Below are positions 2,177 to 63,208 of a stretch of 64,000 nt of DNA, one piece after another. The DNA comes from an uncultured virus (IMG/VR IMGVR_UViG_3300027668_000009) (taxonomy: Duplodnaviria; Heunggongvirae; Uroviricota; Caudoviricetes): IMG/VR virus record IMGVR_UViG_3300027668_000009; one strand, 5' to 3'. The notes below the pieces were generated by a model. The model saw only the letters and a program-made list of their open reading frames with translations, ran no database searches and had not been told where the DNA came from. How positions within the stretch are numbered: the first letter of the stretch is position 1; every line of letters begins with the position of its first letter. Position numbers and translations under genes: made by a program.

Positions 2177-3129
2177 CTTTTTCTTTTCTCTTTCTCAATT
2201 GCTAATTCAAATCCATCATAGTTATTTGCAAACTCACTCTTCGTAACTCTGTTGTGATATACGTCTGCAAACTTCATAAATTGGTCTTTAGTTCGTTTAC
2301 ACTCTTCATCATTCTCATCTGCATATCTATGTGGTCTACCATCAAATGATAATGCAAGATGGTCTGTCTCTGGCTTCTCGCTGGGGTGTGGATGCATCTC
2401 ATTGATATCCAGTAGTCTACTGTCTTCATTAAAGAAGTGTAGAAAGATATGGTATGAGTAATCACCCACTAGATAATCTCTCCAGTGAATTACGTTTGGC
2501 CCTTGATATAATAGTACATCGCCAGGCTCTAAAGATATAGGGATACCTCTTCTGTTTCTATGTGGTAGTCCTTGTGATATTGCAAATGCTTCATCCATGT
2601 CACCCATGTCCACATAGTTACCATCGTTCTGTACCCATATCTTCCAAGGTGCATTGTCATCTGTCTTATAATCTAGACATATGGTTGCACTTATCTCACA
2701 TGATGGTCTATCAGTATGAGCTCTTAGGTATGCACCTCTATCATATTTCCTTGTATAGGAATATGTTTCCCTTAGACCCATGTCAATGACACCGTCTAAT
2801 TTATCCTTTAGCCATCTATGTAGGGAAACTGCCATTGGAGTACAGTAGTTTGCTTTGGACTTTCCTAGTGAATCTTTAGGTGAGTTTTGAGTAATCTCAT
2901 GTTCTGTCTTGAATATGGCTTCATCCCATTTTTTGTTACCTTCAATGGTTTTCCATGCATCTAATGACATGTTGATAATGTCTTTGGGTATAAAGTTTTT
3001 TAGTACTACGTACCTGTCCTTCATCAATGACCATGTCTCGGGATTGGTCACACCAGCAATACTAGTGCCTGGTCTTTCATCGTCGGGGTATGTATATTTT
3101 ACTGTCTTTGCATCATATGGCACAGGCAT
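2173..3129 (-). CDS. 2OG-Fe(II) oxygenase-like protein
   Basis: HTDRPSCEIS HxD motif and distal GDVLLYQG..HWR; start likely MPVPY at 3129. Confidence 0.7.
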   Translation of the reverse strand: MPVPYDAKTVKYTYPDDERPGTSIAGVTNPETWSLMKDRYVVLKNFIPKDIINMSLDAWKTIEGNKKWDEAIFKTEHEITQNSPKDSLGKSKANYCTPMAVSLHRWLKDKLDGVIDMGLRETYSYTRKYDRGAYLRAHTDRPSCEISATICLDYKTDDNAPWKIWVQNDGNYVDMGDMDEAFAISQGLPHRNRRGIPISLEPGDVLLYQGPNVIHWRDYLVGDYSYHIFLHFFNEDSRLLDINEMHPHPSEKPETDHLALSFDGRPHRYADENDEECKRTKDQFMKFADVYHNRVTKSEFANNYDGFELAIEKEKRKR

Positions 3130-5434
3130 CGCAATCTTCCTCATCGTCACTGTTTGTTGGTGAATGCATCATTGGTGGTATGTAATCGTTAGACGCTGAA
3201 TTAGGGTCTGTGATTACATCCTCTACCTTACCATCCATTGTGTTTTGGTAGTATGATGTCTTCCAACCGTACTTGTATGTGTTCAACATGTCCTGTGCCA
3301 TTACTGATACTGGTACTTCACCCTTGTCATAATTCTCGGGGTTGTAACTCCAGTTACCACTAATTGCTTGGTCAAAGAACTTCTGCATCACTGCAAGTAC
3401 TTTAATATATCCATCATTACTAGGCATATCCCATAGTAATGTGTAGTTGTTTTTCAGTATAGAATACTGTGGAACTACCTGTTTAAGTGTTCCTTTTTTA
3501 CTCTTCTTGACACTGAGGTAGTCTCTTGGTGGTTCTACACCATTCGTTGCATTAGAGACGACGCTAGAGGACTCTGAAGGCATCTGTGCAGTCAATGTGG
3601 AGTGTCTTAAACCATGTACTTTGATTCTAGTCCTTAGTACATCCCAATCACATTGTAACACGTTAGGTATGATTGTGTCAACCTCTTTCTTGTACGTATC
3701 AATAGGTAATATACCCTTTGAATACTTAGTCTTGTGGAACCAATCACATGGCCCTTTCTCGGATGCAATTTGATTAGATGCTTTAAGTAGTTCGTACTGG
3801 AATCTTTCTGATAAATCATGCACCAATTGATGTGCTTGTGGGTCATCATACTTGACCTTGTTCTTTGCAAGGAAATGTGCAAGACCAATGTAACCTATTC
3901 CTAGGGAACGTCTTGCTTTTGTTGATACTTCAGCTGCTACGACTGGGTACTTTTGATAGTCTATTAGTTCTTCCAACCCTCTAACTGCAAGGTCACATAG
4001 ATTACTAAGTTCATCTAAGTTCTTAATAATACCTACGTTAACTGCAGAAAGGATACACAACGCAATCTCACCTTCCCCATCGATATGACTGATAGGGTCG
4101 GTGGGTAGTGTTATCTCTTGACATAAGTTACTCATGTTAACCTTGTCGATAAAACTACTGTGCGTATTGCAATGGTCGATATTCATAATGTAAATACGGC
4201 CAGTCTCTGCTCTTTCTTTTAATAAACTTGTAAATAATTGTCTTGCACCAATCTTCTGTTTAGGAACACTGGTTGCACGTTCGTACTTCTCATAGAGTTC
4301 ATCAAACTCGGGTGTTCCAAATGCTTCATATAATCCAGGCACACTATGTGGACTGAACAATGTGATGTCTTCATTCTTTAAGAATCTCTTATAGAATAGT
4401 TCTGATAACTGTATAGAGTAGTCTAGTTTTCTTACTCTGTTGTCTTCTGTACCTTTGTTGTTTTTGAGAACAAGGATGTCTTCGATTTCTTGATGCCAGA
4501 TTGGAAAATGTACCGTGGCACTTCCGCCCCGTACTCCGTTTTGGGTGCAGCTTCGAACTGTGGCTTCAAACTTTTTAAGAAATGGTATGACTCCAGTATG
4601 TTGGACTTCACCCCCTCTAATTTTACTACCAATTCCCCTAATTCGTCCAGCGTTGATTCCAATTCCAGCTCTCTGAGCAACGTACTTACCGATTGCCATG
4701 TCACTTGAGAAGATGGAGTCGAGGGTGTCTGCGGAATCGACGAGAACGCAACTTGCAAACTGTCGAAGTGGTGTTCTGACGCCTGCCATAATGGGTGTGG
4801 GTATGTTGATTTTAAATTGTGATATTGCATCGTAGTATCCTCTAACATAACTTAATCTATTCTCTCCGTAATCTTTAAATAATGTCATTGCAATCAACAT
4901 GTACATGAACTGTGGTGTCTCAAATAATGTGTTGGATGACCTGTCTTGAACCAAATACTTGTCTACTATCTGTTGTAGACCTGCGTATGTGAAGTCTAAA
5001 TCTCTTGTGTGTCTGATAAACTTGTTACACTGTTCTATATCATCTTCTGTGTAATGTGTAAGGATGTCTTTATCATACACACCATTTTTGATGTTTCTTT
5101 GTATGATGTCTCCAAGGGGTGGATATATTTCACTGTCTTTCCATCTAGTGTTAAATACTTGTTTCTGTACACCGTATAGTAATAATCTTGCAGCCACGAA
5201 CTGATAGTTTGGGGACTCTAGTGATATCAAATCACTTGCAGACTTAACTAGAATCTTTTGAATGTCACCTGTGGTGATACCATCATAGAACTGCAGTCCA
5301 CTGTTCATTTCTACAGAAGATTCACTCACACCTGTAAGACCTCTACATGCTCTTTCTACCATTCTATGAATCTTATCTAAATCAATGTGTCTCTTTGACC
5401 CATCTGACTTAATTACTGTAACCTGTGCATTCAT
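3113..5434 (-). CDS. nrdA: ribonucleotide reductase class Ia alpha subunit
   Basis: ATP cone, PTPIMAG, QFASC, SNLCQEI, C-terminal CDAC. Confidence 0.97.
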   Translation of the reverse strand: MNAQVTVIKSDGSKRHIDLDKIHRMVERACRGLTGVSESSVEMNSGLQFYDGITTGDIQKILVKSASDLISLESPNYQFVAARLLLYGVQKQVFNTRWKDSEIYPPLGDIIQRNIKNGVYDKDILTHYTEDDIEQCNKFIRHTRDLDFTYAGLQQIVDKYLVQDRSSNTLFETPQFMYMLIAMTLFKDYGENRLSYVRGYYDAISQFKINIPTPIMAGVRTPLRQFASCVLVDSADTLDSIFSSDMAIGKYVAQRAGIGINAGRIRGIGSKIRGGEVQHTGVIPFLKKFEATVRSCTQNGVRGGSATVHFPIWHQEIEDILVLKNNKGTEDNRVRKLDYSIQLSELFYKRFLKNEDITLFSPHSVPGLYEAFGTPEFDELYEKYERATSVPKQKIGARQLFTSLLKERAETGRIYIMNIDHCNTHSSFIDKVNMSNLCQEITLPTDPISHIDGEGEIALCILSAVNVGIIKNLDELSNLCDLAVRGLEELIDYQKYPVVAAEVSTKARRSLGIGYIGLAHFLAKNKVKYDDPQAHQLVHDLSERFQYELLKASNQIASEKGPCDWFHKTKYSKGILPIDTYKKEVDTIIPNVLQCDWDVLRTRIKVHGLRHSTLTAQMPSESSSVVSNATNGVEPPRDYLSVKKSKKGTLKQVVPQYSILKNNYTLLWDMPSNDGYIKVLAVMQKFFDQAISGNWSYNPENYDKGEVPVSVMAQDMLNTYKYGWKTSYYQNTMDGKVEDVITDPNSASNDYIPPMMHSPTNSDDEEDCDACAI

Positions 5435-14786: not shown

Positions 14787-15110
14787 CTACTCTTCGGATT
14801 CTGACATATGGTATCCACTACCATCACAATGAGTACACTCTTTATCGTCTACTTCACCAGAGCCTTTACATTCAGGGCATACAACTTTGTCTGCTTCTGC
14901 AACGTCTAATGACTCCTTCTGATATGGATATCCTTTTAGGGGGTTAGGAAACTTAGTAGAGAAATGTTTCTTTTGCACTTCTTCGTTTACTGTTTTGATA
15001 GCCATCAAGTATTTCTCAACTGCTTGGCCTGGAGTATCCTCTTGATATGAAACTACTGCTTCATCTGTACCAATTTCTAGTACTCCGTTGTCTGTTTTAT
15101 TACCTGTCAT
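14787..15110 (-). CDS. hypothetical protein with DnaJ-type zinc finger
   Basis: CPECKGSG and CTHCDGSG (CxxCxGxG repeats). Confidence 0.7.
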   Translation of the reverse strand: MTGNKTDNGVLEIGTDEAVVSYQEDTPGQAVEKYLMAIKTVNEEVQKKHFSTKFPNPLKGYPYQKESLDVAEADKVVCPECKGSGEVDDKECTHCDGSGYHMSESEE

Positions 15111-24651: not shown

Positions 24652-25142
24652 TAGGAAACCTCGTCTATTTGCTCTTGTGTAACGGTACCGTTACTGAGTA
24701 ATAGAGCTCTATGTTCCATGTGTCTTTCTTGAGTAGTGTCTTTGTTTTCACCAGTGTATAATACTGCGTGATGGTCAAAAATCATTCGTTGATTGACTGA
24801 AACTCTTTCGTCTGTTTGAACGATTGGATTTCCTTCTTCGTCAAGTGGAGTAACAAATAGTTCTCCAAGTATTCTTCCGAACTTTCCTTTGTCATGACTA
24901 ACGAGTGTGACATCACCTTGTGCAAGTAATTTTGTAAGATGATACTTAGATGCTTTACCAAAAACCTTCTCCACTAAGTCTCTTGTACGTGACTCGGGGG
25001 TATCGATTCCCATAAGACGCACTCTTTGTTTTTTTAGTACAGTTGAAAACCCTAAATCTATATCAACGTCAATTGTGTCGCCGTCAACGATTTTGGTTAC
25101 TGTTACGTGAAATTCTGCTTGTTTAAATAATTTTTTACCCAT
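24651..25142 (-). CDS. thermonuclease (SNase-like)
   Basis: IVDGDTIDV, RVRLMGIDTPE, KGKFGRILG. Confidence 0.88.
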   Translation of the reverse strand: MGKKLFKQAEFHVTVTKIVDGDTIDVDIDLGFSTVLKKQRVRLMGIDTPESRTRDLVEKVFGKASKYHLTKLLAQGDVTLVSHDKGKFGRILGELFVTPLDEEGNPIVQTDERVSVNQRMIFDHHAVLYTGENKDTTQERHMEHRALLLSNGTVTQEQIDEVS

Positions 25143-25629: not shown

Positions 25630-28122
25630 TTATCCAAAAAACGCATCAAGCGACGCAACTGGTTCAACATTCCAGCCAATCTTCTCAATAACCACCTTCA
25701 ATGGTTCTATGAATGACTTGTCAAATTGCATGTCGTAGTTGATATATTTGTGTAATTCCAACTCTCTCGGAAGTACATTCAAGAACGATATGACGTTCTC
25801 GTTAATTGGGTTAGGTGTTGTGAGGTATGTGAAGTGTAACTTCTCTCCACTCTTAATCAACTCGTAACGTTTGTGTATGTTCTTCTTCTTGAGATGATGG
25901 TTGTAAAGTAAAGCACCGCGTACGTGTATGGGTGTACCCTTTCCGTAAATCATCGATGGGTCTGCATACTGTTGTAGATTGTTGCAACCTCTTGGTGATG
26001 ACATGTCTTCGGGTGGTAACCTTCTGAAGTCCATACGAGCATTCTCTACGAAATCCCATAGTTCTTGTTCGTCACCTTGCATCACAATCTTGAATGCATC
26101 CGTAAGTCTACCTCTAACCCATTGTGGTGTACTAGACTTTGCAGTCTCAATACCCATCATCTTGAGTTTAGGTACGGCTAGTCGGACTCCTTCGTTGTCG
26201 ATGACGTTGAGGATATATCTTTTCTTTGCTGTCCATATTCCTCTGTCGGCGATGACCTCTCGTCCCATCTCCATTTTTTGTTCGTATGCGTTGGTGTATT
26301 CTGCAAGGTCTTCGAAACCTTTTTCAAGAACGCTCTCCATGTGTGACTTGGCGATGGAGTCGATGAAGTTAGTGATTTTGGTTTTATCTGTTTCATTGGG
26401 CATGACCTGTTGTATCAATTTGTCTAGTGTAATATAAACAGAATCAGTATCCATTGCAACAACATAATCTTCGTCTGTCTTTAGAGTTGTGTTTAACCAA
26501 TCATTGATTGTCTTCTCTGCATGTTTGATAATCAACTGACCCGACAATGTGATTGCCTCGGCAAGTTGTGGGTCAAAGAATGCAAAGTATTGATTGGCCA
26601 ATGCACCATAAGCTGAGTTAAGTGCAATCTTTCTAACCTGTTGGTTATTGTAAGAACGTTTGATTAATGTATTGAGTTCGTTCTTACGTGTCTTGTCTTT
26701 ACAAGTTTGCAGTTCCTTCTGATACTCAATCATCTTACCCTTCCACATCTTACGTTCGTCATAGAACTTCTGCATAAGTTCGGGAAGGAAACCTTGTTTG
26801 TCGTTAGAGAACCTAGCACCGTTTGGTGTGATACCGAATGCACCGTCAACTACTGTTTCTTTGTTGAATAGTTTCTCTACGGATGTATCTGTTAGTCCTC
26901 TCTGCATCTTCTCGGGTGAGATGTTGTACTGCATAATGATGTGAGGATACAGTGAGTTTAAATCGAATGAGACAACCCATTCATGTTTACCCACGATAGG
27001 TTCTTTAACATATGCACCTTGAATCCTGTCACCTTTTATCTGACCAAGTCTCTGAGGTGGTGTAGCAATGTTCTGTTCTTTAAGGAAGTTGTAGATGATT
27101 GTTTCCCAATACTTAACCATACCAAATGTATCATTGTAGTTACATTTTGCATTGTAAGACATTGCAAGAATCAATTCCATCAATCCTAGTTTGTCTTCTA
27201 AGTCTTCTACCAAGGTAACATCCTTTACATTATATGCAAGGAACTTAGAATAGTTGTTTCTGTATAGATGGTGAAGAGAACCTTCCTCTTCATAGCTTAT
27301 CTTGGTCTTACCTAACTCTACCTTTGCAATATGGTCTAGTCTGTAAGACTCTTGGTTTACGAATGTATGTTTTTTGTATAGTTCTAGGTAATCAATTACA
27401 TTGATTCCGTACAGATTAAAAACCTGTTGCTGAGAACCCCAATTGGTTTTGAATTCTCTGACATCGCACATGTTCCATGGTGAGAACTTTTTGTGTGATT
27501 CTGTACCAAAGACTCTGTCCACACGATTACACAAATAAGTAATGTCAAAAGTATTAACATTCCAACCTGTGATGATATCGAACTTCTCTTTTCTCCAGTA
27601 CTTGATAAACTGTTCAAGTAAGTCTTTTTCATCCTGTGCTTCATGATAAGTCACATTCGCTGGTTTTTCATCCCATGGGCCGATACCAAAAGTATGTGCC
27701 ATGAATCTGAAGGGTTTGATTGTTATTGCATTGACCTTTTCCAAAGCTTGCATAGGTTCGGGGAACCCATCTTCACATTCACACTCAATGTCGAGTGTTG
27801 CAATCTTGATTACTTTGGGGTCGTATTTGATGTCACCTTGAAACTTGTCGGCAATGTAGGTGTAGATATATCTATCATAACCATGAATGTCCATTCCAGC
27901 AGTTCCTGCGAACTTCTCTCGGAACTTCCTTGCACCACCCATTGAATTTAGGTTCACTGGTTCTAGGTTTCTACCATCCAATGACTTGAATGCAGAGTCC
28001 TTTTTAGTCGGGACGTAATGAGTTGGACGGTAATCCACAGACATTTGCACCTGTTTCTTACCTTGGTAACCCTTTACGAGTATCTTGTCGCGTGTACGAC
28101 ATACGTTTGTATAAAAATCCAT
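25630..28122 (-). CDS. gp43: family B DNA polymerase
   Basis: Exonuclease DIE and GWN; SFDLNSLYP, KIALNSAYG, MDTDS. Confidence 0.97.
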   Translation of the reverse strand: MDFYTNVCRTRDKILVKGYQGKKQVQMSVDYRPTHYVPTKKDSAFKSLDGRNLEPVNLNSMGGARKFREKFAGTAGMDIHGYDRYIYTYIADKFQGDIKYDPKVIKIATLDIECECEDGFPEPMQALEKVNAITIKPFRFMAHTFGIGPWDEKPANVTYHEAQDEKDLLEQFIKYWRKEKFDIITGWNVNTFDITYLCNRVDRVFGTESHKKFSPWNMCDVREFKTNWGSQQQVFNLYGINVIDYLELYKKHTFVNQESYRLDHIAKVELGKTKISYEEEGSLHHLYRNNYSKFLAYNVKDVTLVEDLEDKLGLMELILAMSYNAKCNYNDTFGMVKYWETIIYNFLKEQNIATPPQRLGQIKGDRIQGAYVKEPIVGKHEWVVSFDLNSLYPHIIMQYNISPEKMQRGLTDTSVEKLFNKETVVDGAFGITPNGARFSNDKQGFLPELMQKFYDERKMWKGKMIEYQKELQTCKDKTRKNELNTLIKRSYNNQQVRKIALNSAYGALANQYFAFFDPQLAEAITLSGQLIIKHAEKTINDWLNTTLKTDEDYVVAMDTDSVYITLDKLIQQVMPNETDKTKITNFIDSIAKSHMESVLEKGFEDLAEYTNAYEQKMEMGREVIADRGIWTAKKRYILNVIDNEGVRLAVPKLKMMGIETAKSSTPQWVRGRLTDAFKIVMQGDEQELWDFVENARMDFRRLPPEDMSSPRGCNNLQQYADPSMIYGKGTPIHVRGALLYNHHLKKKNIHKRYELIKSGEKLHFTYLTTPNPINENVISFLNVLPRELELHKYINYDMQFDKSFIEPLKVVIEKIGWNVEPVASLDAFFG

Positions 28123-28369: not shown

Positions 28370-28636
28370 CTACTTATTGCCTGTTAGAACCTTGAAATTT
28401 TGTGCAAGATTTGGTCTTGGTTCAAATGCAGCTACTACTCTGACTTTTTTAATGTTAAAGGTATAATCCTTTGCATAAGGTATCCATGGTGCAAGACCTA
28501 CTTCCATATTGGTTCCCTTTAATTCTACGATACATGCGTGTGCTTCTTTTACTGTATAACTAGTTACGTTTTCGGAAACTAAACCTATTACAACATCGCC
28601 ATTTTCTAGACGTAAACACTTTATAATTTCAGACAC
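28370..28636 (-). CDS. hypothetical protein, Sm-like beta fold
   Basis: IKCLRLENGDVVIG..LAPWIPY; resembles 56710..57165. Confidence 0.65.
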   Translation of the reverse strand: MSEIIKCLRLENGDVVIGLVSENVTSYTVKEAHACIVELKGTNMEVGLAPWIPYAKDYTFNIKKVRVVAAFEPRPNLAQNFKVLTGNK

Positions 28637-29084
28637 TTCTTACTTGCTCCTGTAATTCGAGAGAACGTCTCCCAACTTGTTTAAACCATCGAGAGTCTTC
28701 CATCTCAACAGCCATTCCTTCCCAATTCTCCGATACAACTGCTTTCCACATGTTGTTAAATTTACCAAAACGACTTCCACCTAAGTTGAATGTCATGTTA
28801 ACCAATACGTGTTGTATTGCTTCGGGTAGACTATAGAAGTCCTTCCCACCTTTTGATTCAAATACATGGATAGTTTCATCTACATGCTTGTCAAAATCAG
28901 ATTCGTAATACGCATCTACTGTTGATTGACTAACTGGAGTTCCAGCTGGTTTACCTTGTTCTGCATCACCATCTTTAATAAGATGACCAACACCTAGTGT
29001 TAGATAACCTAATGAGTCTGCATAGACTTCAAGGACTTCACCTTCATGTCTTTTAATTTGTTCTTTTAATATTTCTTTATTCAT
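28629..29084 (-). CDS. T4-type lysozyme (GH24)
   Basis: HEG..E.Y.D..GYLT.G.GH catalytic E/D/T; NMTFNLG, SRWFKQVGRR. Confidence 0.9.
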   Translation of the reverse strand: MNKEILKEQIKRHEGEVLEVYADSLGYLTLGVGHLIKDGDAEQGKPAGTPVSQSTVDAYYESDFDKHVDETIHVFESKGGKDFYSLPEAIQHVLVNMTFNLGGSRFGKFNNMWKAVVSENWEGMAVEMEDSRWFKQVGRRSLELQEQVRSV

Positions 29085-29385
29085 CCTGTTCCTGTTCCCT
29101 TTTCAATTGTTCATCCACGAGTTCCATCAAAATGTCACCCATGAGGTCGTTTAATTCACTATTATTTAGGAGTTCCTCAAGTCCAATATCTGTCTTTTGT
29201 TGACCGTGAGGGAACCTTCTTATAGTTCTTTGGAAATTAATGTTGGGTTTTCCATCTTCGAATTGTAACTTACCATATTGGTATACAAGTCCGTCCCATT
29301 CTCCACCTGTCATCTCGATAGCAGCGTCGTTTTCACTTGGATTCTCGACTACCATGTAGACTTTGTTATCGAATAATTTTGGCAT
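29077..29385 (-). CDS. hypothetical protein
   Basis: Coupled ORF; GLVYQYGK motif. Confidence 0.65.
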   Translation of the reverse strand: MPKLFDNKVYMVVENPSENDAAIEMTGGEWDGLVYQYGKLQFEDGKPNINFQRTIRRFPHGQQKTDIGLEELLNNSELNDLMGDILMELVDEQLKREQEQDE

Positions 29386-33808: not shown

Positions 33809-33839
33809 AATCTATACTCCATAATAAATAGATACACCC

Positions 33840-33868: not shown

Positions 33869-33877
33869 GGGGGTTTC

Positions 33878-34414: not shown

Positions 34415-36287
34415 TCTTTTTAAGTAATCTAGTTTTACCATCGAATAATGGTGCATAGATTTTGACTGGTATCTCCTTACCTTTAACCTTGATTTCGTCG
34501 ATGAACTTCCAGTCAATATCGATTTGGTCTTTGGTAAACTCTGAGAATAGAATTGGAGTATCGTATTGTCTAGTCTGAACTTCAAGTCTGGCTGCAAGGT
34601 TGACTGCATCACCGACCACTGAGTAATCGAACCTAAGTTCTGACCCCATATTACCTACGATACATGGGCCTGTGTTGACCCCTGTGCCGATTACAACTGG
34701 TGGTAGGTCTAATCCTTCCTCTACAATATCCTTATTCATCTGTTCAGTAAGTATCTCTATTTCCATTGCAGTTCTGATAGCCATCTCTGCATGGTTCGGA
34801 CAATCCAAAGGAGCATTCCAAAATGCCATTAGACAATCGCCCATATATTTGTCGACGGTTCCACCGTTCTTGATTACTATCTTAGTCATACCATCGAGGA
34901 ATCTATTGATGAGTAGGACTAATCCCTCGGGGTCATCGTTTTTCATGTAAGCTTCACTGATTGGAGTGAATCCTACGATGTCTGCGAAGAGGAATGAAAG
35001 TTCCTTTCTGTCTCCACCTAATCGTAATTTAGAGGGGTCTTTTTGTAGCTCTTCAATCATGTCGGGAGATAAATACTTTTGGAACTGCTTCTTGATTTGT
35101 TGCTTTTCTTGGAAAGTCACATAGTATTTGTTAAACGAAGCATGACCGAAAACTACTAAGGAGGCCAACGATGAAAAGAAGGTATCGAAAAGAACGAGCT
35201 CTGAAGTCCAAATATAATAACTCCCGCCAATCTGGCATACTACAAGTAATAGAAACCCTGTCCCCGAAAGAACTGTGGGAAGCTTGTAAACCATCGCAAG
35301 TATCATTAGCAAAACTATCAGAAGAAGAGCAGTCTCTAGTGATTCAAGATAGTAGGATTGTTGTATTTGAACTCCTGTCAAAACGGTTTGAAGCAGGTTC
35401 GCTTGCACTTCGTGGGGATACATTACACCCCTTGGGGTTGAAACTGGATTATTCAAACCCTCTGCGGTTAGACCCCATACAAGTATTTTATTCTCAACAT
35501 TAGAATCGGGTAAGTCTACAGCAGAAATCCTTTGGAAAGTGTTCCAATAGGATATCATTACGTCACTGGTTGGAGTGGTGGTTATCGGTTTGTCTCTTCC
35601 CATCCGAACCCACTCCACTCCAGTCTCGGGTGTGATTCTAGTTTGATAACTTGGTTGTTCTCTAAGGGCTCTTAAAGCTTCTAACATTAGTGAGGGGTAC
35701 ACTTCACCGTTTGCCGTAACCAATAGTGGTACAGACCGCGTGGTACCGTCAAAATTGGGTGTTCCAGTGACCGCTGGGGTAGCCGTCACAACTCCAACTC
35801 CATAGGTGTTACTCATCAAAATTTCAATCGGACTAACAATCCCATCGAAGTTCCATAGAAAATCTTTAGGTTCCCCACCCCCAAACGTTGAGTTACCAAC
35901 AAATGGTGCAGAACCTTTTTGAGTTTGTGAGGTTGGAGCAGCTCCGAGTATTGTGAGACGGTTTACTAATCCTTCTGCGAATACCGCGTCTTGTGTTGGG
36001 TCTCTATCGGGTTTTGAAAATAGCATACCAAAAATATGAGTGTTGCTATAATGGGTATTAAGAAGCAAGTCACGATAAATCCCACGACGAATAGGATACT
36101 GTCCGTAAGTTTCAAGAGATTTTTCGTCAATGTCGACGAGAATGATGTTATCGACATAGAATTCTTCCTGTTGTTGGTGTAAGTAATCGAACCATGACCA
36201 TGATATGTTCTCTATAAAATATGGGTTCCATATCTTAAGTGCAAAGAGAGCTAGTATAGTTACTAATACTGTTTTCCAAGTATACAT
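34410..36287 (-). CDS. CHASE2-domain class III adenylate cyclase
   Basis: VDIDEKSL..YGQYP, TP.G.MYPHEVQAN (CHASE2), three TM helices, FADIVGFT, DKYMGD, GNMGS..RFDYSVVGDAVNLAARLE. Confidence 0.92.
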   Translation of the reverse strand: MYTWKTVLVTILALFALKIWNPYFIENISWSWFDYLHQQQEEFYVDNIILVDIDEKSLETYGQYPIRRGIYRDLLLNTHYSNTHIFGMLFSKPDRDPTQDAVFAEGLVNRLTILGAAPTSQTQKGSAPFVGNSTFGGGEPKDFLWNFDGIVSPIEILMSNTYGVGVVTATPAVTGTPNFDGTTRSVPLLVTANGEVYPSLMLEALRALREQPSYQTRITPETGVEWVRMGRDKPITTTPTSDVMISYWNTFQRISAVDLPDSNVENKILVWGLTAEGLNNPVSTPRGVMYPHEVQANLLQTVLTGVQIQQSYYLESLETALLLIVLLMILAMVYKLPTVLSGTGFLLLVVCQIGGSYYIWTSELVLFDTFFSSLASLVVFGHASFNKYYVTFQEKQQIKKQFQKYLSPDMIEELQKDPSKLRLGGDRKELSFLFADIVGFTPISEAYMKNDDPEGLVLLINRFLDGMTKIVIKNGGTVDKYMGDCLMAFWNAPLDCPNHAEMAIRTAMEIEILTEQMNKDIVEEGLDLPPVVIGTGVNTGPCIVGNMGSELRFDYSVVGDAVNLAARLEVQTRQYDTPILFSEFTKDQIDIDWKFIDEIKVKGKEIPVKIYAPLFDGKTRLLKKT

Positions 36288-37091
36288 CTAGTTTTGTGTG
36301 ACTGATATATTACAACCACCTGCTGTTTGACAACTTTGAGTTAGTGTATAGTTTTGTACGCTATTACTTTGTTGAGTTAGATTTATGTTAGTTGAGTATG
36401 TTCCTGTTAGGGTTATGTTTGCGTTATGAGCTCCTGAACCACTTTGGGATATAGTACCTGTATTACCATCAACATATGATTTTAATGAAAGAGTTTTCTT
36501 TCCATCTGTTTCTTGGACTACATAAAATGAATTATCGTCTGCATACAAGTATACTGTAGCATCATGTTCTGAATAGGCATTATTGTTACCATTTCTTTGA
36601 TACCCTGCTAATGCATTATTACTACCGTGGATATCTAGAGTAAGTGTCACTCCACCACCTTCATCACCGTCACTAGTAAATGTAGTATCGGATGACCCAC
36701 TTAAAGTAACACCTTGACCCCATCGAACAGAATTACTGTCACCCAAGATATGAAAATCTATATTTGATTCTTTACATGAAGAACCCCTAGTGCAATTTTG
36801 TTCAAAGTGAAGTGAATTGGAATCACCATTTAAGTCTCCACCCGAACCTTGTTGAGTACCCCAAGTAGGAACAAAGGAAATAAAATTCTTGTTTCCTGTT
36901 TGTTTGATTAGTATTTGATTTGATGCACCACCTAGTGAAAAGATAGTGTCGTTGTTGAACCCAATTTGAGTTACATTGAAGACAAGATTGTCATTGGACT
37001 GACTCCCTGTCGTTTCCACATCAACCTTGTTGTTATCGTTTGCGACAACAAACAAGGGTAACATAATTAATAATGATAAAAACTTTTTCAT
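36288..37091 (-). CDS. curlin-like secreted repeat protein
   Basis: Signal peptide; N-x-hydrophobic-x-hydrophobic-x-Q-x-G repeats (TQIGFNN, KQTGNKN, SQSGSGAHN). Confidence 0.75.
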   Translation of the reverse strand: MKKFLSLLIMLPLFVVANDNNKVDVETTGSQSNDNLVFNVTQIGFNNDTIFSLGGASNQILIKQTGNKNFISFVPTWGTQQGSGGDLNGDSNSLHFEQNCTRGSSCKESNIDFHILGDSNSVRWGQGVTLSGSSDTTFTSDGDEGGGVTLTLDIHGSNNALAGYQRNGNNNAYSEHDATVYLYADDNSFYVVQETDGKKTLSLKSYVDGNTGTISQSGSGAHNANITLTGTYSTNINLTQQSNSVQNYTLTQSCQTAGGCNISVTQN

Positions 37092-37098
37092 AATCCTT

Positions 37099-37245
37099 TT
37101 AGATTAACCATTGAAACAATAAGCATAAAATAACTCCTTCAGAAAATGATAACCAATACATATGGTAATCATCTAGTCGCATAGCTTTTTGAAATCCAAA
37201 GATTTGGTTCTCATGCCATACACGGAATTTTTCTGATATGTTCAT
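37099..37245 (-). CDS. small membrane protein (48 aa, not in ORF track)
   Basis: AGGAG SD; MNISEKFRVWHENQ...YWLSFSEGVILCLLFQWLI. Confidence 0.6.
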   Translation of the reverse strand: MNISEKFRVWHENQIFGFQKAMRLDDYHMYWLSFSEGVILCLLFQWLI

Positions 37246-37253
37246 ATATTCTC

Positions 37254-38393
37254 CTAGTTTGTTTGTGTGATGGTAATATTTAGAGACGAACCATCACCCA
37301 CCTGTATTGATGACTCTTTTTCGTCTGTTATGGTTCTAATGGATGCTTGTGCAAACATCGGTAACTTAATAGATATAATTCCATTAACTTCCCTGTAGAA
37401 CCATATTTGACCAAGACCCTTGTCTACAATAGTAGAATATTGTGTGTCTTTGTCAAAGCCTGGCAGAGTTCCGTCAATACGAACCACTCCGAAGGCATTA
37501 GATTGTTGTCTGTCGAGACCAACCTTACGGTCAATGTCTAAAACTACATCTAATAAATCTTGTAAGAAATCGACATCAAGTAAATCTCTGTCGAGCTCTG
37601 TGTATTCTAACTCATCATCTTCAAAGTACTGTTCTTCCAAGTCATTAAACTCTAGGAAGTCCACGTCAAGAACGTTACTTGTATCGTTCTCTTTACTACT
37701 CTGTTCTTCTGCAACCTGTTTGTTCACCTCTTCGGGTGGACTGACAATGAATAAGTTGTCAATCAAGTTGGGTGTAATTCCATTAACCACTATTGGTTTA
37801 GTTGGTGAATCATCGTATGTAGAAACCATTGTTGCTTGATACGCTTCATCCAATAATACCTGTCCGCCTGCATTACTAACTAGGATACTTCCCGAAGGAG
37901 CTCCCCATTTATCGGGTAGCAGTATCACAAGTGACCTTCCGATTTCATCAATAGATGTTGTGAAGTCGGTGCCGTTAACTGTTATCTGTGCAGTCGGTGT
38001 AGTTATATTTATGTTAGCTTTCTTAATCTTTCCACCAAAACCCGAAGCAAATCGAGCGGTGCCTTGTGCCATACGAATGGCCATCTTGGACTTTGAAGGG
38101 TCGGGGTCATAGTAAACCTCGTCTATCCATACCTTTGAATGTTCTGTTAAATCCAGTTGTTCCGTACCTTGGAATTGGATTTTCATTCTGCCGTTCTGAG
38201 TCTGTGCTGTATCATACATCAGCACATCGGATTCATCTGTTGCAGATATCACGGAAGTTTCTCCGTCTCTCTGAAGACCAGCTGAACCCTTGTATTCGAT
38301 AATCTGACCTATCGGTTCACCATATGATAGTGAACTGATAAGTAAGAGATTAACTATCGTTGTCGTCTTTCTGAATAATGTCGATGTTAGCAT
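37254..38393 (-). CDS. FecR-domain protein
   Basis: IG.I....G, D...T..GRM.I.F, L.E.S...ID, I.TPTAQI.V.GTDF; exact start uncertain. Confidence 0.8.
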   Translation of the reverse strand: MLTSTLFRKTTTIVNLLLISSLSYGEPIGQIIEYKGSAGLQRDGETSVISATDESDVLMYDTAQTQNGRMKIQFQGTEQLDLTEHSKVWIDEVYYDPDPSKSKMAIRMAQGTARFASGFGGKIKKANINITTPTAQITVNGTDFTTSIDEIGRSLVILLPDKWGAPSGSILVSNAGGQVLLDEAYQATMVSTYDDSPTKPIVVNGITPNLIDNLFIVSPPEEVNKQVAEEQSSKENDTSNVLDVDFLEFNDLEEQYFEDDELEYTELDRDLLDVDFLQDLLDVVLDIDRKVGLDRQQSNAFGVVRIDGTLPGFDKDTQYSTIVDKGLGQIWFYREVNGIISIKLPMFAQASIRTITDEKESSIQVGDGSSLNITITQTN

Positions 38394-39081
38394 TAGAGGT
38401 CACAAATGATACGTCAATGATACCACTACAAGATTGACCACTCGGACAACTTGTATCTGAACCACTCTTCTGAATGATATCAATATCATTGCCTGAACCA
38501 GTTAAGATTGCAGTGATTTTATTATCAGTCGCGTCAGCTTGAATGGTATTAATGTCGTTTGATGAACCACTTACAGTCCAGTTCCAAACAGCATTATCCG
38601 AATCAACTTTGGTTGTGAATACGTTACTTGAACCACCTACTACTAAGTCCCAGTTTAAGTATTCTGCTGATGCAGTGTAACCGACATCTATATCAAACGT
38701 GTTAGATGAACCTGTTACAGCACCTGCCATGTTTAAGTTGTCTGCACTACCTTGATAACCTATGTTCCAATCCATTGAGTTCGAACCACCAGTAAATGTT
38801 AAATTTACTGTTGAACTATCTGCAATGAAAGGGCCGTATAGTTTGTTGACATCACCAAATTGTACTAGTGTGAAACTGTTGTTTGCACCAGTAAGAATCA
38901 TGTCAGCAGATGTTCCCGAGAAATTATCTAAACCGACTTTGTTTCCGTAACCTTTCTGAGTGAAGTTCAACGTTAGGGCTGTACCACTTTGTTGTAACCA
39001 TATTTCGTTATCGTCTGCTCCTGCAAATGCAGTAGTCGATAATCCTAATGTTAACATAATCAATAATAATTTATTCTTCAT
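38350..39081 (-). CDS. curlin-like secreted repeat protein
   Basis: Signal peptide (AFA); DNEIWLQQSG, TQKGYGN, VQFGDVN and multiple GSSN repeats. Confidence 0.8.
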   Translation of the reverse strand: MKNKLLLIMLTLGLSTTAFAGADDNEIWLQQSGTALTLNFTQKGYGNKVGLDNFSGTSADMILTGANNSFTLVQFGDVNKLYGPFIADSSTVNLTFTGGSNSMDWNIGYQGSADNLNMAGAVTGSSNTFDIDVGYTASAEYLNWDLVVGGSSNVFTTKVDSDNAVWNWTVSGSSNDINTIQADATDNKITAILTGSGNDIDIIQKSGSDTSCPSGQSCSGIIDVSFVTSNANIDIIQKDDNDS

Positions 39082-39979
39082 GTTTTTCTCCTATTGAATG
39101 TAACTCGTTTCTTCCATGTGTTCCATGGGGGTGACGATGTTCATCTTTAATTACCCAAAAACTTCTATCGTGTCCTTGGTATATTAGTTCTAGAACGGCA
39201 AGTTCAATTGCTGAACGTGTTGCTTTCGTAACACCTTCATTTTCTGCTCTGCCATCTTCCATTTCAATTAACTTCGTATCCATATCAACGAAGCGGAATA
39301 CATCATAACCACCACCTGTACTTAGAATCGTTTTCTGAGTCTGTACATTCAGTAAAATCTCACCAGTTAAAGTTGATATTCCTCTCAACGATACGGTGAT
39401 AACATCCCTACGATATGAAATAGAACTGCCAATACCTAAGTATCTTGCGCCTCTTCCACCGCTTTCGATGTTCGAATCATAACCAATAATCCCACCTTCC
39501 AGTAGGATTCCTGCGAAGAGCAAGGGTTGAATTCCTGTTGGGGAACCCTCATTACCTTCCTGTTCTGCAAAACTTTCTCTAGTAGAACGAATGATTTGAC
39601 GCTCTCTTACTAGTGCATCTAAACTTGTTCTCTCTACTACTCTAAACCATTTACCCTTCCCTGCTGTCTTAAGTGCATCAATCAAAAATGATTCAGCTCC
39701 TTGTGTGACTGCAGTGGAGAAAGATGCAATTCCATCTTTACTCTTACGTTGTCCTGTCTTATCCATGAAAGCGTAGACTGCAACGACTGGCATTACATCT
39801 GCTGGTGGTAACAGTAACAACTCTTTATAAGTAGGTATATTTACTACTTCTGCCTTCTCAATGCACTCACCCACCTTACTCATTACAAGAGAGGTGCAAC
39901 TGTCGGTCATAGACGGAATACTTGCACACCCAGTGGTGAACAAGACCGTTATCAGTCCTATAATTGCCCATTGCTTCAT
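39071..39979 (-). CDS. csgG: curli secretion channel lipoprotein
   Basis: Lipobox TTG-C; VAVYAF.DKTGQRK, FSTAVTQG, WFRVVER..L..L..ERQIIR, EGGIIGYD. Confidence 0.93.
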   Translation of the reverse strand: MKQWAIIGLITVLFTTGCASIPSMTDSCTSLVMSKVGECIEKAEVVNIPTYKELLLLPPADVMPVVAVYAFMDKTGQRKSKDGIASFSTAVTQGAESFLIDALKTAGKGKWFRVVERTSLDALVRERQIIRSTRESFAEQEGNEGSPTGIQPLLFAGILLEGGIIGYDSNIESGGRGARYLGIGSSISYRRDVITVSLRGISTLTGEILLNVQTQKTILSTGGGYDVFRFVDMDTKLIEMEDGRAENEGVTKATRSAIELAVLELIYQGHDRSFWVIKDEHRHPHGTHGRNELHSIGEKHEE

Positions 39980-40474
39980 TTAGAAACTTCCTGTACCAAC
40001 TGGTATATCTAAAATCGTTGTTGTCCCATCCTCGGTCACTATCGTTAATCGAATGAAGTCTACTCCATCCTCTCCAGTCATCCTTTCATATGTGACTGTA
40101 TTACCTTCCATTACGAAAGTACCGTAGGCAGCTGCTGTTCCGTTAGAGAACATGTTCTCTACTAACTGTTTTGCTAACTGAGCATAAATTCTGCTCTCTA
40201 CGTTTCTTAAAAATTTTGCAAGTGTTGTGTTCTGTGCTTCTCTGTCTGCCTTTGCAATGGCATCTTCTAAATCTTGTTTTATCTTATCACGTCTAGACTT
40301 CTCTTGATTTTCTATAGTCAAATAGTGAGCAGATATCCCTATCCCATTAAAGGATGGACTCTTAAACTTGTGTACTATCTCGTCTGCATTGGCATAGTTG
40401 ATACCAAGACCACATGCTGTTACCAACATTATTAGTCTTACAACGTGCAATTTACTTTCTATTTTTCTCAACAT
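39980..40474 (-). CDS. csgF: curli assembly protein
   Basis: Signal peptide followed by EIVHKFKSPSFNG (CsgF N-terminal F.NP.F.G-like); ESRIYAQL; adjacent to csgG. Confidence 0.8.
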   Translation of the reverse strand: MLRKIESKLHVVRLIMLVTACGLGINYANADEIVHKFKSPSFNGIGISAHYLTIENQEKSRRDKIKQDLEDAIAKADREAQNTTLAKFLRNVESRIYAQLAKQLVENMFSNGTAAAYGTFVMEGNTVTYERMTGEDGVDFIRLTIVTEDGTTTILDIPVGTGSF

Positions 40475-41377: not shown

Positions 41378-41572
41378 TTATTTATCCAACAATGGATTTT
41401 TATCTTTTGCTTTACCAATGGCAAGTGCAAAGACTTCTATGTATTTATAGCACTTCGCCCAGACGGCATCGTCCTTCGGTGTGTCGGTCATCATTACAAT
41501 GACTGAACATATAGATATGATTGCTGGTATCGCTGACATGAATGCCCAGATACTACTGATTAAATCCCACAT
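41378..41572 (-). CDS. small membrane protein (possibly holin-like)
   Basis: Hydrophobic N-half, TDTPKDD, ALAIGKAK. Confidence 0.6.
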   Translation of the reverse strand: MWDLISSIWAFMSAIPAIISICSVIVMMTDTPKDDAVWAKCYKYIEVFALAIGKAKDKNPLLDK

Positions 41573-60513: not shown

Positions 60514-61308
60514 TTATTTAGGTGTTTCGATATGCCAGAACCTACGAAAGTGTACATAGTTTGGTGGTATAGATGCATATTTAACTGGAGTCTTTGGGTC
60601 TTTTGGTACAACTTCTTCTTGTGTCCAGTTATAAACGTCTCTTCTGTAACACTCATGTTCTATAACAACACCAAAATCAGTATTCATATCTTCGTCATCG
60701 TGTCTTGTATAAGTCTTACCTAATTGTTCTAGGTATTCTTCCACATGGTAGTCATTGAATGCAGCTTCCCAGTGTTCATATCCATTGAAGACTCTTTTTT
60801 GTTTTATAACATCCCCACATCTAAGGGTATTGTTGTCTGCATGGAACACTTGTGAGAGATGTACCTCTGTCTTACTTGGGTGTACTGCAGTCTCTAAAAA
60901 CATTTCGTCTGCATGATTGAATGCCCTTCTTAAATCATCGTAAGGACTTTCAACATGATAGAGTGTACCAAAGTGAATAATTAAATCCCACTTTCTGTCA
61001 TAACTCCACTCATCGTTATGGTTGATACATAACTTCTCTGAGTCTGTATCAATTACATCTAATAGTTCTTGTCTTGCATCTGCATAAGTAACTGTTGCAC
61101 CTAGTTTCTCAAAGTGTTTACTAACCAATCCATGTGCAGTTCCTAGTTCTAGGATAGTCTTCCCATCAAACCAGTCTTCTCCCTTACAATCGATAACCTT
61201 TTGGGCTCTCTTTTCTGTTGGAAGGAACATTGTATGGTCTTCACCCTGTGCATCTGTAAATCTGTAGAACCCTTCGAGTCCGTCTGAGTATTTAATCATC
61301 TTTATCAT
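60514..61308 (-). CDS. class I SAM-dependent methyltransferase
   Basis: ILELGTAHG, YADAR, WDLIIHFGTLYH; start likely 61308. Confidence 0.75.
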   Translation of the reverse strand: MIKMIKYSDGLEGFYRFTDAQGEDHTMFLPTEKRAQKVIDCKGEDWFDGKTILELGTAHGLVSKHFEKLGATVTYADARQELLDVIDTDSEKLCINHNDEWSYDRKWDLIIHFGTLYHVESPYDDLRRAFNHADEMFLETAVHPSKTEVHLSQVFHADNNTLRCGDVIKQKRVFNGYEHWEAAFNDYHVEEYLEQLGKTYTRHDDEDMNTDFGVVIEHECYRRDVYNWTQEEVVPKDPKTPVKYASIPPNYVHFRRFWHIETPK

Positions 61309-61334
61309 ACAGGTATTTATCGCTTTCAAATGCC

Positions 61335-61364
61335 TTGACAACGACACCAGCTTTTTGTTATACT
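61335..61364 (+). promoter_or_regulatory. early promoter (conserved family)
   Basis: GCC-TTGACA-ACGACACCAGCTTTTTGT-TATACT. Confidence 0.8.
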
Positions 61365-61875: not shown

Positions 61876-61906
61876 AGTATCACCGAAGTGATTAGAACCG
61901 AAGTCC

Positions 61907-63208
61907 TTACAGAATGTTTGACACTGCAAATTTTCTGTAGTACTGGTTAGTTCCCGCAGTTGCAAGTCCGTCTGCTGGTGTAGCACCAACGAAAGGATTT
62001 GAAACCATACCATATCTAGTTTTGAAACCGATTTTTGGTTGGAAAGTATTCTCACCGACAGCACGAACCATTTGTAATGGTACGTAAGGACAGTAGAAAA
62101 GACCAGCATCATAAGGGTTAGTTCCTCTATAACCTACAGTCAAGTAATCAACACCAGCATATGGGTCGACGTATACTTTAACTCTTCCGTTTAGGATACC
62201 AGCAAATGTATTGCCAGTGTCGTCAACGTTTAAGTTTGTAGATAAAGCAGGTGCGTAATCTAATACTCCTGCCATTGAAAGAGCAGATGCTACGTCTGAA
62301 GAACATAGGATAAAGTTACCTTTTCCTCTTCTTGTTTCTTTAGCTATCTTGTTTGACTCTCTTTCGATTTGGAACAATAATCCTTTAAATTTCTCAACAG
62401 ACCATCTTCCGTTTGCGTCAACGTCTAAGTTGAACGTTCCAGCAGTAGCAGTTGCAGCTGCACCTACTTTAGCTTGAACGTTAACATTTCTGATAACTTC
62501 ACGGTTGATTTCTGCAAGAATTTCTGATGAAAGAATATTTGCAAGTTCTGATTCTGCATCAAGACCGTGGATTGCTTTGAGGTCTTGTGCTAATTCGAGT
62601 GTGTACTCTGCTTTTAATGCTCTGGATTTTGCAGTTACGGTTGCTTTCTCAATGCTGAATGCCATTTGAGCGAAACCGTTTGATGCTTCAACGTCTCCAA
62701 GTGCTTCTGCACTTGCTGTTGACATACCCGCACCTGTATCAGTCGCATATGAACCATTGAATGGGTCATTATTACGTGCTGCTAAAGGGCCGTCAGCGAC
62801 AACTTGGTTGTCATTGGAATACTTAGTATCTGCTTCGTTAAATAACGCTTCAGTTTTACCTTCTCTTCCTGCTGATGGATAGTCATTGTATCTTGCTTTC
62901 ATAGCAAAGATAAGCCCTGTTGGGCCAGTCATTGGTTGAACACCACAAATGTCGTATGCAACGAGATTTGGCATGGCTCTACGTACTAATGAAATCAAGA
63001 TTGGATTCCAGTTAGATACTGCAGAACTTCCAGTAGCATTTAAAGGTGCTGCTTCGTCAAGAGTTTGACCTTCTTCGAAAAGGGCCTTCTCTTGGTTTTC
63101 AAGAATAACAGCAGTAACGGCACGCTTGTAGTTGTCTTCGATTTTTGGTAAATCGGAGTGTTCTAGAATCGGCTGCCACTTCTCTTGTAAGTTTTCTGAT
63201 AAAAACAT
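61907..63208 (-). CDS. gp23: major capsid protein
   Basis: LVRRAMPNL.AYDICGVQPM.GPTG, KSRALKAEY, YCPYVPL, QPKIGFKTRYG. Confidence 0.98.
   Translation of the reverse strand: MFLSENLQEKWQPILEHSDLPKIEDNYKRAVTAVILENQEKALFEEGQTLDEAAPLNATGSSAVSNWNPILISLVRRAMPNLVAYDICGVQPMTGPTGLIFAMKARYNDYPSAGREGKTEALFNEADTKYSNDNQVVADGPLAARNNDPFNGSYATDTGAGMSTASAEALGDVEASNGFAQMAFSIEKATVTAKSRALKAEYTLELAQDLKAIHGLDAESELANILSSEILAEINREVIRNVNVQAKVGAAATATAGTFNLDVDANGRWSVEKFKGLLFQIERESNKIAKETRRGKGNFILCSSDVASALSMAGVLDYAPALSTNLNVDDTGNTFAGILNGRVKVYVDPYAGVDYLTVGYRGTNPYDAGLFYCPYVPLQMVRAVGENTFQPKIGFKTRYGMVSNPFVGATPADGLATAGTNQYYRKFAVSNIL

Follow-up and report, generated by a model that had tools for sequence, protein, structure and literature searches.

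Gene clusters that pair a C5-cytosine DNA methyltransferase (C5-MTase) with a TET/JBP-type oxygenase have been described from ocean viromes, in the neighbourhood of an AhpC redoxin, a heat-shock protein (HSP), lysozyme and T4 genes (Burke et al. 2021, PMC8256090). According to that report, most of the methyltransferases (MTases) measured act at GpC[C/T], and those of clade I, which includes a kinase-bearing contig, act at GpC[C/T/G] and not at GpCA. ParB-dependent systems with a 5mYOX (T-dioxygenase) enzyme are also described (PMC13229309). The function is left open in 10.1101/2023.12.21.572611, where a GpC-limited, post-replicative modification is thought unlikely to protect broadly. Here we analysed a 64-kb stretch (the window) of the uncultured virus IMGVR_UViG_3300027668_000009, which carries a cluster of this kind. 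We find that the genome has lost nearly all copies of several restriction-type motifs. Most of these motifs persist at about the expected number only where a GpC lies in, or directly against, the site.

The window comprises bases 10294-74293 of a 97,368-nt virus record (the contig), which CheckV rates 54% complete. It has 38.2% G+C, and the minus strand carries every gene. For the null model, we permuted synonymous codons within each gene, using 136 minus-strand open reading frames (ORFs) that cover 92% of the bases. Figures are given as observed vs shuffle mean, from 500 shuffles for the window, 1000 for the contig and 300 for the distance profile. Genes were called crudely, as the longest ORFs, and the window set omits the TET ORF. 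Running the same code on two complete phage genomes, HTVC008M and Mosig, we obtained GGWCC at 73/68 and 79/76 (observed/expected), CCWGG without a GpC flank at 112/102 and 90/88, and flanked CCWGG at 24/26 and 35/35, respectively. The observed values lie close to the expected ones, and the null model is therefore well calibrated.

Against this null, which keeps protein sequence and codon usage, restriction-type sites are strongly under-represented. GATC is absent from both the window (0 vs 170.5; shuffle minimum 143) and the contig (0 vs 254.8). GGWCC is also missing (window 0 vs 36.2, shuffle minimum 24; contig 0 vs 53.9), and GGSCC is enriched (window 27 vs 11.4, shuffle maximum 23; contig 39 vs 15.6). 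A preliminary description of this stretch had listed GGSCC at 2498, 3750, 5753, 17099 and 62922, and all the coordinates it quoted are correct. It had attributed the pattern to a nuclease against GGNCC; the loss of GGWCC and the excess of GGSCC hold, and a plain GGWCC enzyme fits equally well.

The motif CCWGG shows the conditional nature of the avoidance most clearly. As the preliminary description had claimed, every one of the 14 copies in the window has a 5′ G or a 3′ C (14 vs 9.0), and unflanked copies are absent (0 vs 28.1; shuffle minimum 19). On the contig, HCCWGGD stands at 0 vs 44.2, copies with one GpC flank at 18 vs 14.7 and copies with two flanks at 7 vs 1.1. Two survivors lie side by side at 2498-2527, a GGSCC at 2498 and gCCAGGc at 2521-2527. 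CCWGA/TCWGG behaves in the same manner: copies without a 5′ G are depleted (window 9 vs 135.9, shuffle minimum 112; contig 12 vs 214.2), and those with a 5′ G are present at the expected level (window 21 vs 19.8; contig 30 vs 32.1). None of the 1000 contig shuffles got down to the observed lows of CCWGG and CCWGA. For CCTCC/GGAGG in the window, the counts are 0 vs 55.5 without the G and 2 vs 4.5 with it. CCGG was found once in the window (1 vs 35.0), again as previously stated, at 31714 inside GGCCCGGC (31711-31718). This copy lies about 250 nt before the MTase stop and within the TET ORF (30990-32036). On the contig it stands at 3 vs 57.8 (unflanked 0 vs 40.8, flanked 3 vs 17.0). Hence, the idea that a modified GpC shields such sites fares well for CCWGG and CCWGA, and poorly for CCGG. 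The purge of GATC, GGWCC, CCGG, unflanked CCWGG, CCWGA and CCTCC spans the entire 97-kb contig, and it is very unlikely that a purge with GpC rescue arose by chance.

We also scanned all 5-mers free of any hypothesis, splitting each word by the presence of GC within the word ±1 base and taking at least 4-fold depletion as the cut-off. The 12 rows depleted without GC contain only GATC words, GGWCC, CCWGG, two CCGG words, CCTCC, CCTGA, CCAGA and ACGGG. Out of 64 CCNNN words, only those listed by the scan are affected; CCWGT, for example, has an observed/expected ratio of 1.17-1.24 and CCACC of 1.34. Thus the flank-resolved counts against a codon-shuffled null, which the preliminary description had proposed as its check, bear it out: the purge is motif-specific, and copies approach the expected number only with an overlapping or abutting GpC. 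Motifs whose GpCs all stand before A or G are purged on the contig even though they contain GC (GTGCAC 0 vs 14.4; CCGCA 5 vs 41), as is GACGTC (0 vs 10.2). TGCA is enriched (856 vs 573), and its context avoids GCY on both strands. The GTGCAC/CCGCA purge and the TGCA excess are consistent with GCA being left unmodified.

Performing a distance analysis of the contig CCWGA copies, we find that the protection has a sharp edge. Copies with G at -1 (GCCWGA) number 30 vs 32.1, those with GC directly 5′ (GC|CCWGA) 7 vs 5.4 and those with GC directly 3′ (CCWGA|GC) 4 vs 6.6. When the GC is one base off on either side, the count falls to 1 vs 19.7; it is 0 vs 8.7 for GC farther away (-4/-3 or +3/+4) and 0 vs 175.1 for GC nowhere within 4 nt. 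Protection requires a GpC inside or touching the site, and its reach is one position. Rescue from the 5′ side is exemplified by GC|CCAGA at 41544-41550 and from the 3′ side by CCAGA|GC at 14857-14863. The single survivor with a one-base gap between GpC and site is GCTCCTGA at 36430-36437, in a class with 1 vs 9.5 expected. The contexts reported earlier for GCCAGA at 41160, GCCCAGA at 41544 and GCTCCTGA are all confirmed, and the suggestion that protection acts from 1-2 nt outside a site is not, as only a directly abutting GpC acts. The rescue is not an effect of G+C content or duplex stability, because a C at -1 (CCCWGG, or CCCWGA without a preceding GC) does not rescue.

The avoidance is visible in codon choice. 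Gly-Pro is written with GGC or GGG in 28 of 28 cases, although genome-wide they account for 7% and 8% of Gly codons. The preliminary description had counted 22 such dipeptides, all GGC or GGG; the codon claim stands, and the number in the window ORF set, which leaves out the TET ORF, is 19. A Pro-Gly dipeptide makes CCNGG unavoidable, and GGC is used in 24 of 26 of them (22 CCW-GGC and 2 CCS-GGC, namely gCCGGGC and gCCCGGC); the other two are gCCWGGA. Before Asp and Glu, Pro is CCC in 36/39 and 55/69 cases, against a genome-wide share of 16%. Protein composition also differs. Pro-Gly occurs 26 times vs 61.8 expected from composition here, and 29/55.7, 50/101.7, 40/102.1, 45/75.5 and 69/107.8 times (observed/expected) in other genomes bearing the footprint. 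It is thus roughly 2-2.5-fold below expectation in the footprint-bearing phages, unlike in HTVC008M (117/103.1) and Mosig (110/98.3), where it is not reduced. From these dipeptide counts, nuclease avoidance seems to have altered protein sequences. Gly-Pro is low in all genomes compared and is hence uninformative at the dipeptide level.

The genes that could supply a GpC mark lie together on the minus strand. The C5-MTase (31964-33247) matches PF00145 (E=7.5e-47, residues 27-414) and TIGR00675 (E=5e-42). In its translation we recognised by eye FAGGGG, PPCPPFS with its Pro-Cys, ENV and QKRER, which we take to be motifs I, IV, VI and VIII. The TET/JBP-type 2-oxoglutarate (2OG)-Fe(II) dioxygenase of the 5mYOX type (30990-32036) matches PF12851 (E=1e-13; 51.3 bits vs a cut-off of 34.9), and its H-L-D, distal His and Arg are present by eye, without alignment to a solved TET. 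The TET ORF overlaps the 3′ end of the MTase gene by 73 nt on the same strand, and the pair is thus parallel and well within five genes of each other. Next comes a 332-amino-acid (aa) ORF (29902-30897) with no Pfam match even at E<=10. One Atlas neighbour cluster of this ORF has ParB_N in 12% of its members, a weak ParB-like lead. At its position, relatives with the same cassette (A-type, below) have a protein of 23-53% identity, an unrelated ORF or none, which suggests a variable tailoring or regulatory partner. A P-loop nucleotide kinase of the P-LK type (29369-29902; PF18751 Ploopntkinase3, E=1.8e-7) follows as the tailoring enzyme of the set. It has a 54% identical homologue in the cassette of Methylophilales phage Melnitz and is likely the activator of the 5-hydroxymethyl group. 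The Pfam scan of the window found no glycosyltransferase beside the cassette. By Pfam and synteny, the slot is bordered upstream by peroxiredoxin (33287-33808) and Hsp20 (33881-34315), and downstream by a conserved 102-aa ORF (29080-29385), then lysozyme (28632-29084) and DNA polymerase (25633-28122). By its gene content, this is an intact cassette of the published GpC[C/T] type. The footprint had been said to predict the target of the MTase/TET pair; the cassette is indeed there, and the overlap rescue also occurs in phages that do not carry it.

Using the MTase and the polymerase as queries, we collected 113 related loci. They share the order cyclase, Hsp20, (peroxiredoxin), slot, 102-aa ORF, lysozyme, polymerase. 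Between Hsp20/peroxiredoxin and the 102-aa ORF, the slot is occupied by any one of four sets, A to D, that exclude each other (29080-34315 in the window, L082 6794-8740, L100 1880-4621 and L067 1429-5631, respectively). Cassette A consists of the MTase, TET, the variable ORF and the kinase, and is present in three polymerase lineages. Cassette B is a single protein of 472-482 aa that weakly matches N6_N4-MTase and contains a TSPPY motif, presumably the signature of an N4-cytosine MTase. Two examples (L082 7281-8726, P0001; L199 10001-11395, P0002) show DTSCGWGDR and then DCAFTSPPYFS, after a 300-aa N-terminal part without a family. With at least 600 IMG/VR matches, it is very widespread among marine phage contigs; phmmer against PDB sequences gave nothing useful. 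Cassette C (L100 1880-4594; also in G012) encodes DruA-like (phrog_19197), radical-SAM/SPASM and SDR-like proteins. Cassette D (L067 1429-5620) encodes QueD, QueE, QueC, FolE, a small CBU_0592-type membrane protein and a 448-aa protein (phrog_10773, no family). No DpdA was recognisable in cassette D, and the 448-aa protein may be a DNA transglycosylase.

The overlap rule holds with all four cassettes. For loci of at least 6 kb, we grouped the A-type loci into A_hi, which includes our contig, and A_lo. Unflanked CCWGG stands at 4/186.9 in A_hi, 0/103.1 in A_lo, 0/61.0 in B, 0/15.6 in C and 0/9.0 in D (observed/expected). Flanked CCWGG, in the same order, stands at 110/61.5, 46/32.9, 52/29.2, 18/7.8 and 5/3.5. 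Large genomes agree: G007 (B-like, 151 kb, 83% complete) has GGWCC at 0/84, unflanked CCWGG at 0/70 and flanked CCWGG at 52/20; G006 (B, 80 kb) 0/31, 0/31 and 31/9; G011 (D, 153.5 kb, 81% complete) 1/64, 3/55 and 39/14; G012 (C, 94.8 kb, 52% complete) 0/49, 0/46 and 46/17. The complete genome of Melnitz is A-type with its cassette after the polymerase, and has GGWCC at 0/58, CCWGG at 0/63 unflanked vs 68/26 flanked and CCTCC at 3/131 vs 13/22. An overlapping or abutting GpC is found at 15/15 CCGG and 16/16 CCTCC survivors of Melnitz and at 17/17 CCAGA survivors of G007. One rule thus governs motifs that vary from lineage to lineage, an indication that it reflects a property of the phage DNA. 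PF00145 has no match in G006, G007, G011 or G012, or in any of the 15 B-, C- and D-type records searched; PF01555 matches G007 alone of these four and is absent from G000 and Melnitz. In the comparison with relatives lacking the cluster, which had been proposed as a check, the link to the MTase/TET pair thus finds partial support, and one cannot name this pair as the cause from the footprint alone.

Three genomes cannot show whether the rescue needs a cassette, because the motifs are not purged there. HTVC008M and Mosig have neither kind of MTase, and G014, considered as a C-type test (C-like, 69% identity), has GGWCC at 46/63 and CCWGG at 62/75. An RGCY-specific N4-methylcytosine (m4C) is ruled out as the rescuer in B-type phages, as 10 of 15 gCCAGA survivors of G007 have T or C before the G.

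Two traits follow the cassette. The first is the reach. Rescue of CCAGA by an abutting GpC is at expectation with cassette A (8/6.3 in our contig, 7/5.0 in four other A_hi contigs and 5/7.0 in nine A_lo loci; sum 20/18.3). It is nearly absent in the B sets (0/2.0, 2/6.0, 0/2.5 and 0/4.4), the C sets (0/4.7 and 0/14.5) and the D sets (0/5.8 and 1/4.7), which total 3/44.6. The A_lo polymerase is sister to that of B (82-84% identity) and 71-72% identical to ours, so the abutting rescue tracks the cassette and not the lineage. A limit of abutting rescue to MTase/TET phages fits a bulkier adduct, and in this respect the comparison backs the earlier proposal of a bulky modification. The second trait is the tolerance of GTGCAC, seen in C-type phages only (20/16.6 and 65/38.7; 0 in all A, B and D sets). 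These phages also tolerate CCGCA and lack the TGCA excess seen with A, B and D, as expected if the cassette-C mark also covers GCA. The cassette comparisons are uncorrected for the number of motifs examined, and host differences could contribute.

From the counts, the distance profile, the gene content, the swaps and the difference in reach, we infer that a modification exists, that it lies at GpC, that the slot cassettes make it and that host nucleases exert the selection. Selection would come from nucleases recognising GATC, GGWCC (or GGNCC), CCWGG, CCGG, CCWGA, CCTCC and a few hexamers, and nearly all copies would have been lost via synonymous codon choice and partly via loss of Pro-Gly. 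The phage would modify GpC after replication, as suggested by survivors reaching roughly the expected number only with GpC in or against the site. In this phage, the C5-MTase would write 5-methylcytosine (5mC) at GpC (GCC/GCT), and TET would oxidise it to 5-hydroxymethylcytosine (5hmC). The kinase and the variable neighbour gene would probably build a larger adduct, the modified base would block the nuclease, and the adduct would be large enough to act from the neighbouring position. Since the same overlap rule holds in the sister phages, we read all the slot sets as GpC-directed: cassettes A-D would be alternative modification modules for GpC (GCC/GGC), and the sister phages would reach the same overlap protection by other chemistries. 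We hold it probable, with real room for doubt, that interchangeable cassettes modify GpC and that the genome is co-adapted to that target.

Several observations weigh against this interpretation. Overlap rescue occurs without any C5-MTase in B, C and D phages, and four unrelated enzyme sets must then share one target, a strong assumption. HTVC008M, Mosig and G014 are silent on the need for a cassette, as their motifs are unpurged. With the contig at 54% completeness, a further enzyme could be encoded in the missing part. Rescue of CCGG is slight on the contig (flanked 3 vs 17.0) and nil in G011 (0 vs 11) and G012 (0 vs 21). GCAGCA is purged (2 vs 57.7) despite the GCT that its lower strand contains. 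The A_hi loci have a common origin with the window and hence do not provide independent counts. Finally, the cultured relatives infect streamlined bacteria.

A different maker of the mark is the alternative that survives best, and we regard it as unlikely. Here the GpC mark would be real, a host orphan methyltransferase that is conserved, or an unrecognised phage gene common to the lineages, would write it, and the cassettes would serve some other purpose. The overlap rescue is indeed alike whatever the cassette, and a shared gene could be missed in a contig 54% complete and in G007 and G011 (81-83%), or as a remote homologue invisible to tblastn. However, our tblastn presence/absence comparison gave no enzyme common to the footprint genomes yet absent elsewhere; all it returned was a cell-wall hydrolase and ORFs of 58-94 aa. 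Once G014 joined the controls, two further candidates, an SNase-like nuclease and a 2OG oxygenase, fell out of the shared list. A Methyltransf_23 gene of the window (60517-61347) was considered as the common rescuer and ruled out, since it has no homologue in any compared genome. Moreover, a single modifier predicts neither the reach that varies by cassette (20/18.3 vs 3/44.6) nor the GTGCAC tolerance confined to C. Marine viral methylation motifs are also rarely shared with prokaryotic ones, according to PMC8919816.

Another explanation dispenses with modification. The nucleases would fail beside a G-C step, and the avoided words would simply be longer (e.g. HCCWGGD, HCCWGA). Flank effects on restriction enzymes are known, SexAI, BsaWI and Cfr10I require fixed flanks around CCWGG or CCGG, and the rule holds in phages with unrelated cassettes. 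We nevertheless find this improbable. A 'not GpC' rule would have to arise independently for CCWGG, CCWGA, CCTCC, CCGG (in Melnitz) and GGNCC. For the palindrome CCWGG a single flank suffices (18 vs 14.7), and no copy has any combination of H/D flanks (0 vs 44.2 here, and 0 vs 63, 70 and 31 in Melnitz, G007 and G006). Sites are also rescued by a GpC that lies outside them, 5′ or 3′, with a reach that depends on the cassette.

Slightly less credible still is that the selective agent is the phage's own nucleases, which would degrade unmodified host DNA and whose targets the phage must lack or shield, as in chlorella viruses and T4. An SNase-like gene (24654-25142, minus strand) is kept in all footprint lineages checked, including Melnitz, and has no tblastn match in HTVC008M or Mosig. 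To our knowledge, though, SNase-family enzymes are not sequence-specific, and the Pfam scan found no restriction-type nuclease in the window. The hosts of the cultured relatives are streamlined bacteria (PMC9004378), which speaks for own nucleases. On the other hand, the purged sets differ between close lineages (GTAC in B only; ACGT and CGACG in A_lo), for which varying host repertoires would be a better fit, and there is overlap between the purged motifs and the methylation motifs of other marine myoviruses (RGCY, CCWGG, GGWCC, CCNGG and CTCC; PMC8919816). There is a negligible chance that the pattern is an artefact, whether of codon usage, of amino-acid composition or of the null model: the null retains a codon usage that avoidance itself shaped and the gene calls are crude, but that bias makes the null conservative, the controls lie close to expectation, and zeros face expectations of 28-255 with no shuffle near.

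Returning to interchangeable GpC-directed cassettes, we tentatively offer a broader proposal, in which we have appreciably less confidence. The hot spot may take at least four chemically unrelated cassettes (5hmC-derived, N4-methylcytosine, 7-deazaguanine and a radical-SAM product), all acting on GpC (GCC/GGC). The genome would have been rewritten so that unavoidable sites lie only under GpC, and this landscape would constrain the swaps. Specificity and reach could then be read from sequence, with overlap only indicating small marks, one further position the MTase/TET/kinase adduct and inclusion of GCA the radical-SAM product.

The phage belongs to the Melnitz/pelagimyophage group of marine T4-like myoviruses. 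T4-type Pfam matches in the window are gp23, a prohead scaffold protein, the gp44/62/45-type clamp and clamp loader, RegA, UvsW/X/Y and a family-B polymerase; ribonucleotide reductase, Hsp20, peroxiredoxin, NifU, peptide deformylase, CsgG/CsgF and a CHASE2 cyclase are also matched. By major capsid protein, the nearest cultured phages are Melnitz (67%) and the Pelagibacter phages HTVC008M and Mosig (63-66%), whose hosts are OM43 strain H5P1 and Pelagibacter HTCC1062. A megablast of 12 kb against the phage collection gave no match. A block at 34413-40474 (minus strand) joins the CHASE2-adenylate/guanylate cyclase, a FecR-domain protein, CsgG and CsgF (curli-type secretion parts), and is so annotated in HTVC008M. 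A PP-loop ATPase at 471-1079 (minus strand) has a weak QueC-like match at its N-terminus only. The rest of the 7-deazaguanine set (FolE, QueD, QueE and a DpdA-type transglycosylase) is missing from the window, and no other 7-deazaguanine genes are present on the contig.

Some further depletions were noticed. The B-type phages also purge GTAC (0/262), GTAAC (2/148) and CATCC (8/106), the A_lo phages ACGT (27/259), CGACG (1/75) and AACGTT (0/30), and the D-type phages GCG-containing words. RGCY stands at 262/818 in HTVC008M and 275/744 in G014, and GGSCC at 1/16 in HTVC008M and 0/19 in Mosig. On our contig, the asymmetric hexamer GCAGCA/TGCTGC is purged (2 vs 57.7), GCAGCG (36 vs 10.9), GCAGCT and GCAGCC are enriched, and Ala-Ala is hardly ever coded GCA-GCA. 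The purge of GCAGCA extends to A_lo, B, C and D, and Mosig has few copies (10/61).

If the cassettes act as we propose, modification and site loss would work together, with uncovered targets deleted and shielded ones kept, which suggests an answer to the function of a GpC-limited modification. This joint strategy would even hold rare codons in place, GGC after Pro and CCC before Asp/Glu, and make Pro-Gly scarcer. The locus would be a case of a hot spot that swaps whole modification chemistries at a constant protected motif. The approach would let the specificity and reach of modifications in uncultured phages be deduced from sequence only, and would supply natural 'protected' and 'unprotected' substrates for enzyme assays. 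Melnitz, cultured on OM43 strain H5P1, shows the same footprint, which makes experiments feasible.

The closest described systems are the C5-MT/TET clusters of PMC8256090. The likeness comprises a parallel, adjacent C5-MTase and TET/JBP oxygenase, a P-loop kinase and AhpC-type redoxin, Hsp20, lysozyme and T4-type neighbours. The footprint fits the GpC[C/T] specificity measured there (C/T/G and not A in clade I), a likeness that we draw without placing our MTase in a clade. The functional results of PMC8256090 concern enzyme activity in E. coli rather than effects on phage genome sequence, whereas a genome footprint is what we describe here. As to the doubt raised in 10.1101/2023.12.21.572611 about broad protection, this genome would have removed what the modification cannot cover.

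The purge resembles classical restriction-site avoidance in that short palindromes (GATC, GGWCC, CCWGG, CCGG, GTGCAC and GACGTC) are absent or nearly so. It differs in being conditional, with sites tolerated at the expected frequency under GpC, a measurable radius and effects that would reach the proteins. A full-text literature search found no earlier description of such conditional avoidance, which is weak evidence of absence. Phage CAjan carries dPreQ0 at GA and GGC, and this blocks enzymes with the motif in their site (HaeIII, EcoRV; PMC7544227). It is a precedent for a motif-limited guanine mark at the same trinucleotide; sister cassette D has FolE, QueD, QueE and QueC without a recognisable DpdA, and the window lacks the pathway.

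Marine Myoviridae-like genomes often have m4C at RGCY, CCWGG, GGWCC, CCNGG, GGHCC and CTCC, with virus-encoded m4C enzymes dominating (Hiraoka et al. 2022, PMC8919816), and the purged motifs would therefore be those contested in the marine habitat. The phages of that study methylate the sites themselves, whereas the present lineage deletes them and retains the copies overlapped by GpC. The RGCY specificity reported there cannot by itself explain the rescue in B-type G007, whose type of cassette carries TSPPY. Like T4 with its glucosyl-hydroxymethylcytosine, our T4-like phage would, if our reading is right, set a bulky adduct on cytosine against nucleases. T4 substitutes all its cytosines ahead of replication and has no need for site avoidance, whereas here GpC cytosines alone would be modified, after replication, and site loss would do the rest. 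In summary, the cassette and the site avoidance are each of a known kind, and what is new is conditional avoidance with a sharp, cassette-dependent radius.

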